From the NCBI GenBank assembly GCA_030584005.1, contig CP129486.1, forward strand, positions 1,855,933-1,919,932: a stretch of DNA of 64,000 nucleotides, written 5' to 3'. Of the stretch, positions 1 to 28,433 are shown in pieces; positions within the stretch are counted from its first letter, which is position 1; each line of letters starts with the position of its first letter. This stretch comes from Bdellovibrionota bacterium (GTDB lineage Bacteria > Bdellovibrionota_C > UBA2361 > JAFLCA01). A model generated the notes under the pieces. It made no database searches and was not told where the DNA came from. It worked only from the letters and a program-made list of their open reading frames with translations. The position numbers were made by a program, and so were the translations under genes.

Positions 1-95
1 CTTCGGAGTTTGCAAGTGGCTCGCTCGTACTTGCTATCCCGCATCCCGCACGGAATAGCTGCCATGGGTTCGGTTTCATGCCATGCTCGGGTCAG

Positions 96-133
96 AAGTG
101 GTCTCAAGTATACCTCTATGAAACCACTCATAG
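96..133. repeat. Palindromic intergenic unit, family A (AGTGGTTTC-N13/14-GAAACCACT), copy 1
   Basis: agtggtctc-aagtatacctctat-gaaaccactcatag; arms match copies at 731, 10046, 23554 and 62507. Confidence 0.7.
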
Positions 134-150
134 TCATATGAGATAGCATT

Positions 151-735
151 ATGCTTGGATTGCCCCTCGCCCACTGGCTCGTTGTGTTGAGCGCCTTTAT
201 TACCGTTGCCGGCGCGATGGCCTATATTCGCGATACGCTCGCCGGAGCAACGAAGCCCAACCGCATCTCCTGGTCGATGTGGGCAATGGCTCCGCTCATC
301 GGCACCGGTGCAGCCGTTTCTGCCGGCGCGGATCTTTGGGCAACGGTGCGCATTTTTCTGGCTGGATTCCTGCCGCTGCTCGTGTTTATCGCCTCGTTCG
401 TGAATCCACGAAGCTACTGGAAACTTACGACATTCGATCTGTTGTGTGGTGTTTCCTCTGTGATGGCACTGGTATTCTGGCTCTCGATTGATGAGCCAAG
501 GGTGGCGATATTGCTGGCCGCAATTGGGGACGGTTTCGCTTCTATCCCCACTATCGTCAAGGCCTGGAAGTATCCTGAAACTGAAACTGGGGTCACCTAT
601 CTGGCAAGCTTTGTCAGCGCGCTGTTGGTGCTCCCTTCAATCCCCGTGTGGAACGTCGAGAACGCGAGTTTTCAAATCTACCTTCTGATTGCTAACGCGT
701 TGTTGCTGTTTGCAATCTATCGTCCGCGGCTATAA
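151..735 (+). CDS. Uncharacterised multi-pass membrane protein (loosely PQ-loop/SemiSWEET-like)
   Basis: 194 aa, about 6-7 hydrophobic helices, two internally similar halves (KPNRISWSMW / PETETGVTY). Confidence 0.75.
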   Translation: MLGLPLAHWLVVLSAFITVAGAMAYIRDTLAGATKPNRISWSMWAMAPLIGTGAAVSAGADLWATVRIFLAGFLPLLVFIASFVNPRSYWKLTTFDLLCGVSSVMALVFWLSIDEPRVAILLAAIGDGFASIPTIVKAWKYPETETGVTYLASFVSALLVLPSIPVWNVENASFQIYLLIANALLLFAIYRPRL

Positions 736-773
736 AAGTGCTTTCAAAAAGGTAGTTGTGAAACCATTTTTAG
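731..773. repeat. Palindromic unit, family A, copy 2
   Basis: tataaaagtgctttc-aaaaaggtagttgt-gaaaccatttttag; left end overlaps the TAA stop of 151-735. Confidence 0.75.
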
Positions 774-805
774 AGGTACGCTGATCTGATTCAGCATGTC
801 CCTAG
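770..805. repeat. Palindromic unit, family B (YTAG-AGATACGCTGAA-N5-TTCAGCGTA-CCCTAG), copy 1
   Basis: ttagaggtacgctgatctgattcagcatgtccctag; matches 16691, 26770, 28398 and 57972. Confidence 0.75.
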
Positions 806-853
806 CCTCCTGAGTCAATGAATTTGTATATAAGTCGAGTCTCAGGAGGCTAG
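802..853. repeat. CTAG-bounded hairpin unit (family D)
   Basis: Perfect 13-bp inverted repeat ctagcctcctgag / ctcaggaggctag. Confidence 0.7.
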
Positions 854-984
854 CCGGCCATGAATGGCTTGCTCAAACGCCGCGAGGCCTTTGGACGGCC
901 GCAAAGATGGAGTGTCTCGGGGCCCCGTCTTGGCGTGGTCGTTTCGGAAATGGCCATGGACGGCCATTTCCGGATAGGTTCTAG
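850..984 (-). repeat. CTAG-bounded unit, family C (core AAATGGCCGTCCATGGCCATTT), long copy
   Basis: Core cggaaatggccatggacggccatttccg at 945-972 is the reverse complement of the cores at 28361 and 57873; CTAG at 850 and 981. Confidence 0.7.
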
Positions 985-1047
985 TCTGCCGAGCAACCGA
1001 CTGTCGAATGTTGCAATTCATTTCTGACTCGGGAGATTAGGAGCACT

Positions 1048-2157
1048 ATGGCACCCCTCATAATGACTATACTGCGTGTTCAGGCTGCCGTGGTAGGAAG
1101 CGTGATGTTGGCTGTTGCGGCTATAGGGAACACTGAGCCGCTGCGGGTGGGCGCCGTGCTACCTCTCACCGGGGTGACCGCTGATTATGGGGAGACTATT
1201 AAAAACGCCATCATGATGGCGCAGGACGACAGCGTGGTGCTGCGCGAGAAAGTGAAATTTATCTTCGAGGATGCCGGATATGACCCCAAACAGGCGGTAA
1301 GTGCATTCAAGAAGCTGGTACAGGTGGACCGGGTCGATCTGGTGTATGTGTGGGGAGTGGCTTTTTGCAAGGCACTCGCGCCGCTGGCCGAAAGTGCCCG
1401 CGTGCCCATGATTGGTCAATGCATCGATCCGGACGTAGCCCGTGATAGGCGCTACGTCCTGCGCTTCATGAACTACACCGATCAATACCTGCGAGCGACC
1501 GCCCAGTTCTTGGCAGCAAAGGGCGCCAGAAAGTTGGCGGTGGTGATCACCGACAATCCCTATCTTGAGGAGATGCTGGCAGCCCTTGAGAGAAACCTGG
1601 AGCCGGGTCAGACGGTGTCGGTGCTGCAGCGCTACCAATCGAACGAGATGGATCTTCGGTCTGTAGTATCGAGGCTGCGTGGCGGAGAGTTCGACGCAAT
1701 AGGCATCTTCCTTTCCTCCGGTCAAATCGCGGCTTTTCATCGGCAGCTCGCCGAACAGTCGGTCGATATACTTAAGTTTGGCACGAATTACTACGAATCG
1801 CTCTCAGAGGTGAGCGCAGCGGGCGGGGCCATGAACGGCTCCGTCTTTGCCAATAACGCGGTGCAGCCGGAGTTTGTAGAGCGCTATCGCAAACGCTATG
1901 GCGAGGTCACTCAGATTGGATTTGGCGCACTGGCTTTTGAATTTGCGGCGACTCTCGGACGCCTGTTGGAACACTCTTCAACAGCCTTCGAGAGCGGAGC
2001 AGCAGTGCTCAATGCGATCGAGCGCATGCCTGTTGCCCGAGGGACTGCCGCTGGTCCATACCATTTTGAGAACGATCCGGCAGTTGGTCGTTACATACAC
2101 TTTCCGATAGTGATGAAAGAGATTCATGGTCATGAGTTTCGGATTGCGGCGAGGTAA
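1048..2157 (+). CDS. ABC transporter substrate-binding protein, LivJ/branched-chain amino acid type
   Basis: Signal peptide, then LRVGAVLPLTG...G..IKNAIMMA and FIFEDAGYDPKQAVSAFKKLV; periplasmic binding protein type I pattern. Confidence 0.85.
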   Translation: MAPLIMTILRVQAAVVGSVMLAVAAIGNTEPLRVGAVLPLTGVTADYGETIKNAIMMAQDDSVVLREKVKFIFEDAGYDPKQAVSAFKKLVQVDRVDLVYVWGVAFCKALAPLAESARVPMIGQCIDPDVARDRRYVLRFMNYTDQYLRATAQFLAAKGARKLAVVITDNPYLEEMLAALERNLEPGQTVSVLQRYQSNEMDLRSVVSRLRGGEFDAIGIFLSSGQIAAFHRQLAEQSVDILKFGTNYYESLSEVSAAGGAMNGSVFANNAVQPEFVERYRKRYGEVTQIGFGALAFEFAATLGRLLEHSSTAFESGAAVLNAIERMPVARGTAAGPYHFENDPAVGRYIHFPIVMKEIHGHEFRIAAR

Positions 2158-10088: not shown

Positions 10089-11141
10089 CTACGCGGCAAA
10101 GCGGAATAAGATAAGCTCGAGTGTTAGTCCTGGCCCCACACCGACGAGCAGGGCATAATCGTCTTTCTGCGGGGCAGCCGACGCAAGAAAGCGCTCAAGC
10201 ACAAACAGTACGGTGGCAGAAGAAAGATTGCCGCAGCTCTGCAGGACCTCTCTTGCCCAGGGCGCCTGCTCCGGCCGCAAAGAAAAAGCCGACTCCAGCA
10301 GCTCTAGAATTCTAATCCCCCCTGGATGGAACAGCCAGTGTGGAATGCTCGACGGTGTAAGATCGTGCTGCGCGAGGAACGAACGCACGAGTTGCGGTGC
10401 GGCGCTGCTCAAGGATTGCGGCAGCTCTTTGGCCAAGCGCAGGTGAAATCCATCGTCGAACAAATCGTATCCCATCAGATGTCGCGTATTGGGCAAGAGA
10501 TAGGATTGATGGGCGATGAAAGTGAGCCCTGATTCCCCCGCACCGACGACCGCGCAAGCTGCTCCGTCTGCAAAGAGGGCACTGCCGACGAGTTCGGCCG
10601 ATGAAGGGTTCTCGCTGTGGAATACCAGGGAGCAAAGCTCCACTGAGTTAAGAAGCACAGCGCCCCCGCTGTGTGCGAGCTGAGAAGCGATGCCCAACCC
10701 GACCACCCCGCCGGCACAACCCTGCTGATATATCGGAATACGTTTGGTATGGCGCGACATGCCCACCCGTTCAAGGATCAGTGCGTCGATTGAAGGGATG
10801 GTGGGGCAGCTGCAGGAGGTAAAAACAAAGGACTCCACACTCTCGGGAGTCACCGCCGCCTGGGTGAGCGCTCGCGTGACGGCCTGGCTGCCGAGCTTCG
10901 GCCCCTCTCGTTCGAAATGTTCGGCCCGACCATGCAGGCCATTAAGGGACAGTATCTCGGGAACGGGTATGGCAAATGAACGACGCTCTGTTCGAGTCGA
11001 AGATAGAAAGCGTTCAAAAATGGCCCGCTTTGCTGGGTCGTGTGCAAGCCAATTATCGGTGCAGCGGGCGATCTCTTCGGGGGTGTAACTATGCTCGGGG
11101 ACGGCAGTGCCGATACTACGGATGGTGATCGGTTTATTCAT
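10089..11141 (-). CDS. Type III polyketide synthase (chalcone-synthase-like)
   Basis: Cys-His-Asn triad: QQGCAGG, WLFHPGG, CGNLSSA; LFADGAA; GVGPGLTLE. Confidence 0.93.
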   Translation of the reverse strand: MNKPITIRSIGTAVPEHSYTPEEIARCTDNWLAHDPAKRAIFERFLSSTRTERRSFAIPVPEILSLNGLHGRAEHFEREGPKLGSQAVTRALTQAAVTPESVESFVFTSCSCPTIPSIDALILERVGMSRHTKRIPIYQQGCAGGVVGLGIASQLAHSGGAVLLNSVELCSLVFHSENPSSAELVGSALFADGAACAVVGAGESGLTFIAHQSYLLPNTRHLMGYDLFDDGFHLRLAKELPQSLSSAAPQLVRSFLAQHDLTPSSIPHWLFHPGGIRILELLESAFSLRPEQAPWAREVLQSCGNLSSATVLFVLERFLASAAPQKDDYALLVGVGPGLTLELILFRFAA

Positions 11142-16690: not shown

Positions 16691-16726
16691 CTAGAGATAC
16701 GCTGAACTCATTCAGCCTACCCCTAG
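16691..16726. repeat. Palindromic unit, family B, copy 2
   Basis: ctagagatacgctgaactcattcagcctacccctag; right CTAG supplies the TAG stop of the AKR gene. Confidence 0.8.
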
Positions 16727-28349: not shown

Positions 28350-28401
28350 CTAGTAGTCAATTTTAAATGGCCGTCCAGGGCCATTTAAAAATCGCTCCTA
28401 G
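28350..28401 (+). repeat. CTAG-bounded unit, family C, short copy
   Basis: ctagtagtcaattttaaatggccgtccagggccatttaaaaatcgctcctag. Confidence 0.75.
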
Positions 28402-28433
28402 AGATACGCTGAATAAGTTCAGTGTCTCCCTAA
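28398..28433. repeat. Palindromic unit, family B, copy 5
   Basis: ctagagatacgctgaataagttcagtgtctccctaa; shares its CTAG with the preceding family C unit. Confidence 0.8.

Follow-up and report, generated by a model that had tools for sequence, protein, structure and literature searches.

A CTAG-linked stack of five short repeat modules in a Bdellovibrionota genome, probably a mosaic of lineage-specific miniature elements

The locus and its five modules

The window of this study, which means the whole stretch of 64,000 nt that was analysed, corresponds to positions 1,855,933-1,919,932 of a single-contig Bdellovibrionota genome of 2.284 Mb with a GC content of 55%. The cumulative GC skew of this contig had a single minimum and a single maximum approximately 1.1 Mb apart, which is the pattern expected for a closed circular chromosome. 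In the window, a spacer of 312 nt (736-1047) separates a membrane-protein gene from a gene for a LivK-type substrate-binding protein, both on the forward strand (Table 1). This spacer was found to be filled by five abutting repeat modules, A, B, D, C and E, with each junction formed by one shared CTAG or TTAG tetranucleotide. The earlier note had read four palindromic modules, A, B, D and C, chained through single YTAG words. All four are real, the tetranucleotides stand where they had been placed (TTAG at 770-773; CTAG at 802-805, 850-853 and 981-984), and one YTAG is common to each pair of neighbours at all junctions of the stack. The count was wrong, with the fifth module, E (981-1041), having been overlooked; moreover, module A opens at 730 with CTAT and not at 731 with CTAG, and module C, taken whole, is not palindromic but consists of four hairpins in a row.

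Table 1. Features of the locus, and transposase-type genes and elements elsewhere in the genome
Feature	Coordinates	Position	Strand	Remarks
Second family A copy	window	94-133		5' of the membrane-protein gene; 29.5 bits, E 5e-7
Upstream gene	window	151-735	+	194-aa membrane protein; no Pfam hit on record
Module A	window	730-773		degenerate copy of the 42-nt family A; nhmmer family model, 21.0 bits, E 2.5e-4
Module B	window	770-805		36-nt hairpin, family B; 24.4 bits, E 5e-5
Module D	window	802-853	+	52-nt hairpin; 57 bits, E 4e-15; left end of the D-C-E composite
Composite D-C-E	window	802-1041	+	240 nt, outer inverted termini
Module C	window	850-984	+	135 nt, four successive hairpins; 77.8 bits, E 1e-21
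Module E	window	981-1041	+	60 nt, CTAG...TTAG; 72.8 bits, E 4e-20
Downstream gene	window	1048-2157	+	periplasmic LivK-type (branched-chain amino-acid) substrate-binding protein; PF13458, PF01094
Intact HUH/Y1 gene	genome	63770-64735	-	outside the window
Intact HUH/Y1 gene	genome	1600077-1601009	+	outside the window
Intact HUH/Y1 gene	genome	2011776-2012807	+	outside the window
IS3-family element	genome	446312-447502
IS3-family element	genome	459160-460346
IS3-family element	genome	760308-761498
IS3-family element	genome	1473908-1475095

The consensus of family A was CTA-T-AAGTGGTTTCA...TGAAACCACTT-C-TAG, and that of family B was CTAGGGATACGCTGAA-TAAG-TTCAGCGTATCCCTAG. Module B has its TTAG in common with A and its CTAG in common with D, the two 13-nt arms of D (802-814 / 841-853) match perfectly as an inverted repeat, and C contains a perfect 11-nt hairpin (945-955 / 962-972). 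When the spacer was folded as single-stranded DNA, one set of hairpins per module was obtained (z = -6.2 against shuffles), and the stack is far beyond chance. The modules also touch both genes. The membrane-protein gene takes its last codon and its TAA stop (733-735) from CTATAA, the left tip of module A, and the right end of module E (TTAG, 1038-1041) stands directly 5' of the AGGAG ribosome-binding site of the transporter gene and overlaps it (1038-1047). The ends of both flanking genes may thus have been reshaped by module insertions.

Module families, chains and probable insertion at CTAG

Single-sequence nhmmer searches came first and recovered full-length copies whose ends matched the proposed boundaries. 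Iterated nhmmer models then gave 64 loci of family A, 91 of B, 71 of the C superfamily, 7 of D and 7 of E in the 2.28-Mb genome, together with two families missing from the window stack, P1 (27 loci) and P2 (7 loci). When CTAG-to-CTAG segments were listed genome-wide, as the earlier note had advised, they fell into tight palindromic length classes of 28, 29, 36, 42, 52 and 60 nt, and the family models bore out its expectation that the modules recur elsewhere as discrete units bounded at CTAG. Column conservation was 70-99% across the flanking CTAG and 30-40% one base beyond, and the B consensus, with up to 3 mismatches, occurred 35 times in the genome against 0 for the reversed control. Families A, B, P1, P2, D and E are hairpins with arms of 11-16 nt, that is, terminal inverted repeats on short non-coding units, and several units of only 28-42 nt are barely more than two fused termini. 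The termini read GGGATACGCTGAA in B, AAGTGGTTTCA in A and TCTCCYGAGTCA in D/E. At least six families have unrelated termini and one target word in common. C1 and C2 alone lack terminal inverted repeats; units of the C type have subterminal hairpins. Long forms of 135-180 nt (10286-10465, 490707-490867 and 601793-601927), with termini of the B type around a common GC-rich internal segment, were also observed, and the 36-nt B hairpin may descend from them.

The 274 modules were arranged in 199 chains, comprising 141 single modules and 58 combinations in varied order (A-B, C-P1, C-P2 and D-C-E, for example), with approximately half of the modules solitary. The longest chain in the genome is the A-B-D-C-E of the window. 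Between families with sharply defined ends, the overlap at the junction was exactly 4 nt, one CTAG-like word, in 20 of 23 cases. By crude ORF calls, 169 of the 199 chains were intergenic, and the other 30 lay in short, probably spurious ORFs or over-extended 5' ends; gaps between convergent genes were enriched, holding 52 of the 169 chains against 18% of intergenic gaps. CTAG is depleted genome-wide (0.70 of the Markov expectation), and its density was 13.9 per kb within chains, as against 2.2 per kb in the rest of the intergenic DNA and 1.0 per kb in coding sequence. There were 75 junctions among the 274 modules, and module flanks made up approximately 22% of the CTAG sites outside ORFs; therefore, the stacking appears to be roughly what random insertion into permissive CTAGs predicts, and a special attraction need not be invoked. 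Further B, C and P1 modules were seen in the window at 16691-16726, 26770-26805, 28365-28432 and 57877-58006, and its other stacks, which include C-B and C-C-P1-B chains, likewise have single CTAGs as junctions.

The claim that insertion at CTAG regenerates the target was supported by a paralogous pair of empty and filled sites. A D-C2-E composite at 108.9 kb has a single CTAG between C2 and E (...AACAGCACT-CTAG-TCTGCCGAG...), and its paralogue at 112.3 kb has a 152-nt P2-C1 unit at exactly that point with CTAG on either side; a third copy of the composite, at 464 kb, has P2 alone at the C2/E point. The terminal inverted repeats of P2-C1 matched at 15 and 18 of 24 positions in two copies counted in register by script, and at approximately 19 of 24 in two mis-registered copies read by eye. 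In addition, the 108.9-kb composite is placed mid-way in a unique 16-nt host palindrome, and a lone B copy at 1,319,141 interrupts a host hairpin whose arms match at 12 of 12 positions, the sole clear extra case among flank palindromes. A flank-to-flank search of the genome for paralogous empty sites returned only cases of module in module, and the flanks of the modules had no paralogues there. With modules that recur as discrete units and a paralogous empty site that has one CTAG, neither of the refuting outcomes named in the earlier note was observed.

One insertion per module, as the repeated-insertion model would imply, was not supported, for the D-C-E part of the stack was copied as a unit. 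The termini of D and E are related (CTAG-TCTCC-Y-GAGTCA), an inverted repeat (801-817 / 1025-1041) spans the left end of D and the right end of E, and the outer termini of D...E match at 13-14 of 18 positions. The order D-C-E was present at four loci, with C1, C2 or C2-P2-C1 in the middle, and the composite copies can be aligned through D and C2. Moreover, the window copy of C is chimeric, its 5' end belonging to subfamily C2 (CTAGCCGGCCA) and the remainder to subfamily C1, and the identical chimeric junction is found at 365.3-365.5 kb of the genome. A D-C2-P2-C1-E arrangement like that at 112 kb could have given rise to this junction if a deletion occurred between two short repeats, GGCCAGGGATGGC and AGGCATGGATGGC. 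The chimeric junction common to the window and 365 kb, taken with the outer inverted repeats, indicates that the composite formed once and was then copied, and the stack accordingly needs approximately three insertions and not four or five. Truncated C copies were found at 329 kb and 365 kb. Copies of A that are paired with B were more alike (0.795) than solitary A copies (0.669), with which both age and co-transposition of A-B are compatible.

As to the target duplication, CTAG does lie on both sides of the insert, as had been proposed, and duplication of the whole CTAG is less likely than that of TA in view of the ends of family A. Oriented by their asymmetric loop, the A copies mostly read CTA-T-AAGTGG on the left and CCACTT-C-TAG on the right. 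Because a target duplication is not inherited by copies, the T in the fourth position would belong to the element, and an element-borne T fits C-TA-element-TA-G, the IS630 pattern. At three junctions, the flanks of B differ as the terminal base of the neighbour differs, which agrees with a TA duplication; among the 91 B copies, 30 had CTAG/CTAG flanks, and matched pairs other than CTAG were rare (CTAA/CTAA 1, TTAG/TTAG 1). The target of IS630 is given as TA within 5'-CTAG-3' (Tenzen and Ohtsubo 1991, cited in PMC2170065), and CTAG is duplicated on insertion of the IS5-type MITEPsy1 (PMC3189936). Duplication of TA inside CTAG, as in the IS630/Tc1-mariner type, is the alternative that we slightly favour, and a 4-bp duplication of the IS5/IS1380 type is a plausible but less probable one.

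A probable mosaic of miniature elements and its possible mobiliser

The spacer is best read as a mosaic of non-autonomous MITE-type elements, belonging to families private to this lineage, that were inserted at CTAG; the probability of this reading is put at approximately 0.7. Each family would have its own terminal inverted repeats and all would use CTAG as the common insertion target. An insertion that leaves CTAG on both sides of the element would provide a fresh target each time, so that later elements could land end to end with one CTAG in common. With CTAG rare and tolerated chiefly between genes or on stop codons, insertions would build up in the same spacers. The window stack would then most likely represent approximately three events. 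In two of them, A would have come first and B would have entered at its CTAG end, or the two in the opposite order; the third would have brought in the 240-nt D-C-E, put together at another place and carried as one piece by its outer inverted repeats.

A parent for these elements was sought in the single-contig genome. Models of the IS630 transposase (PF13358, NF033545) had no match above cut-off in it, and none was found there for the transposases of IS4/IS5 (PF01609, PF13586, NF033581), IS1380 (NF033539) or IS1182 (NF033551). Genome-wide, no pair of family ends enclosed a transposase gene, and the B-B intervals of 1.4 kb and 2.7 kb contained ordinary genes. The earlier note had suggested looking for a RAYT, IS5, IS4 or IS1182 transposase with matching ends, and no such gene was found. 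Among the 90 other genomes of the order, 20 carried IS630, at 30 loci whose termini were unlike the modules. If sequence-specific DDE enzymes were responsible, at least six families with unrelated termini on one target would require several lost transposases. An IS3-family element of 1.19 kb, present in four copies that are 98-99% identical (Table 1), has orfA/orfB and TG...CA ends and, alone among the insertion sequences of the genome, is evidently recent. Two 1.33-kb repeats (1286254-1287581 and 1686794-1688120), 98.9% identical, hold a frameshifted HUH-type gene and are bounded by GGGACACCCA / TGGGTGTCC motifs, a repeat system distinct from the CTAG modules. The IS3 element and the 1.33-kb unit, the long repeats of the genome, were considered as autonomous parents and rejected, since neither has the ends of the CTAG modules.

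In families A, B and P1, the frequency of Watson-Crick pairs equalled the product of the column frequencies, which means that the arms mutate independently, and compensatory double changes were not in excess (16 observed against 13.4 expected for B). No replichore strand bias was found in any family (Fisher p 0.14 to 1.0), and copies of C, of which 15 faced the same way as flanking genes and 13 the opposite way, had no preferred orientation. Independent decay of the arms together with the lack of orientation bias fits neutral decay of dead copies and argues against selection on the hairpin, a strand-specific RNA role and single-strand transposition of the IS200/IS605 type. The elements look inactive now, because their arms decay independently and no matching transposase is left in the genome.

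These data bear on an unlikely alternative, namely that the modules are REP/BIME-type palindromes with a flanking tetranucleotide, spread by a domesticated RAYT-like HUH tyrosine transposase acting on single-stranded hairpins. Such an origin would suit hairpins of 28-52 nt with a fixed xTAG tag, their intergenic mosaics enriched between convergent genes (52/169 against 18%) and the C-type units that have subterminal hairpins and lack terminal inverted repeats, and an enzyme that reads structure would account for unrelated families on one target. The genome also has three intact genes of the Y1_Tnp type (HUH/Y1), of 310-343 aa, plus two frameshifted copies. However, the distance from a Y1 gene to the nearest module is never below 1.4 kb, and other, unrelated repeats flank these genes. 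The only Y1 protein scanned, that of the 2.012-Mb gene, scored 35.7 bits against the RAYT model NF047646, the cut-off of which is 80, and was also under the IS200 cut-off. Moreover, the absence of orientation bias relative to replication, the independent decay of the arms and the target on both sides of the insert in the empty/filled pair speak against it. Each intact Y1 gene was seen to be bracketed by short tandem direct repeats and not by hairpins; units of the CTAAATATTC type lie 5' of the gene at 63770-64735, and their inverse lies downstream. A further proposal, that a single enzyme reading structure and not sequence mobilises all families, acting on any CTAG-flanked hairpin, with the divergent HUH/Y1 proteins as candidates, is judged improbable. 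If true, a structure-reading mobiliser would be a new way of moving small palindromes.

Still less probable is the possibility that the modules are functional structured elements under selection, such as terminators, hairpins that stabilise mRNA or regulatory RNA sites; for instance, the leader of the transporter gene could contain CsrA-type binding hairpins, formed by C with its AUGGAU/AUGGAC loops. Two hairpins of C do have such loops, resembling CsrA-binding sites. The strong fold of the spacer, the position of C 5' of the downstream gene in the same orientation, and the module tips that provide a stop codon and adjoin a ribosome-binding site would agree with a function, and 847-981 (+), in C, matched the RsmW sRNA model over its full length. 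This match was far under threshold (24.7 bits against a gathering score of 52, E 0.06), and four more genomic stretches around other B copies gave zero Rfam matches at gathering scores. Identity with RsmW or a CsrA-sponge sRNA was rejected on this score and on the unbiased orientation of C. The functional possibility is also opposed by the C copies that face either way (15 and 13), by compensatory pairs that are not in excess, by hairpins with no T-tract on their 3' side, by a spacer in which no terminator or promoter was scored, and by the absence of the families from all relatives searched. Finally, it is scarcely credible that the stack arose without transposition, from chance palindromes or from neighbouring repeats that were duplicated or recombined locally: recombination between short repeats does reshape elements, as in the C2/C1 chimera and the truncated C copies, but the copies are dispersed chromosome-wide between unrelated flanks without paralogues, which already contradicts this explanation, the unit boundaries are precise, and the reversed-pattern control gave 0 against 35.

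The families behind the MITE-type mosaic are specific to this lineage. The B pattern had 0 occurrences in the 90 other genomes of the order and was not found in the species collection, JGI metagenomes or IMG/VR. Homologues of the downstream gene in 40 relatives of the same family and order were at most 46% identical, and none was found when its back-translated sequence was scanned against 185,579 species. The best homologue of a flanking gene among 5.8 billion proteins was 62% identical, and its contigs were not syntenic and had no modules. No orthologous locus was thus present in the public data covered (40 relatives, 185,579 species and 5.8 billion proteins). The sole identical contig (SRR24881069) agreed at 100% over all 7,110 bases and hence offered no strain variation. 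An exact 22-mer of a C hairpin, AAATGGCCATGGACGGCCATTT, was observed in three unrelated metagenome contigs with GC contents of 47% and 71% (L034:2036-2057, L035:5996-6017 and L036:3364-3385), which have only this simple hairpin in common with module C; in two of the three, the 22-mer is apparently inside another repeat.

Relation to known systems

The modules behave as CTAG-targeting MITEs in a BIME-like arrangement, and no specific IS family can be assigned to them because the defining transposase is missing from the genome. The earlier note had not recognised CTAG-nested families of this kind, and yet the kind is known, from IS630 at TA in CTAG and from MITEPsy1, which duplicates CTAG. Like the MITEs of IS630/Tc1-mariner, the modules are small non-coding derivatives with terminal inverted repeats that restore the CTAG target at their flanks, and the central TA is plausibly the sole duplicated part, as the ends of family A suggest. 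Unlike those MITEs, they have no IS630-type transposase in their genome, and none with matching termini was found in the order. They also resemble MITEPsy1 of Pseudomonas syringae in being short and non-coding with CTAG on both sides after insertion. MITEPsy1 is derived from the IS5 family, measures 100 nt with 18-nt inverted repeats, duplicates CTAG or YTAA, and has a resident parent IS, ISPsy2; it has been trapped moving (PMC3189936). In contrast, no IS5 transposase is present here, and the CTAT found systematically at one end of family A speaks against a duplication of 4 bp.

The intergenic head-to-tail mosaics of several short hairpin repeats, often behind genes, are reminiscent of enterobacterial BIMEs and REPINs. 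REPs have a GTAG tag on one side, and the RAYT gene is flanked by REPs. The present modules differ from the REP/RAYT system in that their tag is itself a palindrome, CTAG, and stands on either side, in that they have no associated RAYT, and in that the junctions are the common target word and not linker motifs. Composites with a variable number of modules, such as D-C-E with C1, C2 or C2+P2+C1, recall pneumococcal BOX elements (boxA-boxB-boxC) and the Correia elements of Neisseria, the latter also in their TA-type targets; unlike these, the present modules can also be found singly, each bounded by inverted termini of its own, and there is no sequence relationship. The PATE of the IS200/IS605 type do not duplicate their target, insert 3' of a fixed word and have an orientation tied to the replication strand. 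Elements of this type were rejected for the modules on the lack of replichore strand bias.

Taken together, these are new, lineage-specific families of the known MITE/BIME-like mosaic kind, which is an ordinary kind of selfish DNA. CTAG-targeting transposons and MITE/BIME mosaics are established already, and the only room for surprise lies in the missing mobiliser; the residual novelty is that many unrelated termini are found on one target without a resident enzyme. The locus provides a quantified example of how, through a self-regenerating target word, unrelated miniature elements can accumulate in growing stacks at individual intergenic sites, and of how such stacks can become new composite elements that move as units. 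The mosaic is also of value for annotation, as it explains approximately 270 hairpin repeats and the features at gene ends, including the stop codon, the ribosome-binding site and a spurious ORF. This 55-aa ORF (860-1027, +) lies wholly within modules C and E, is a gene call in the public Logan assembly (L021 2813-2980), and is almost certainly spurious.
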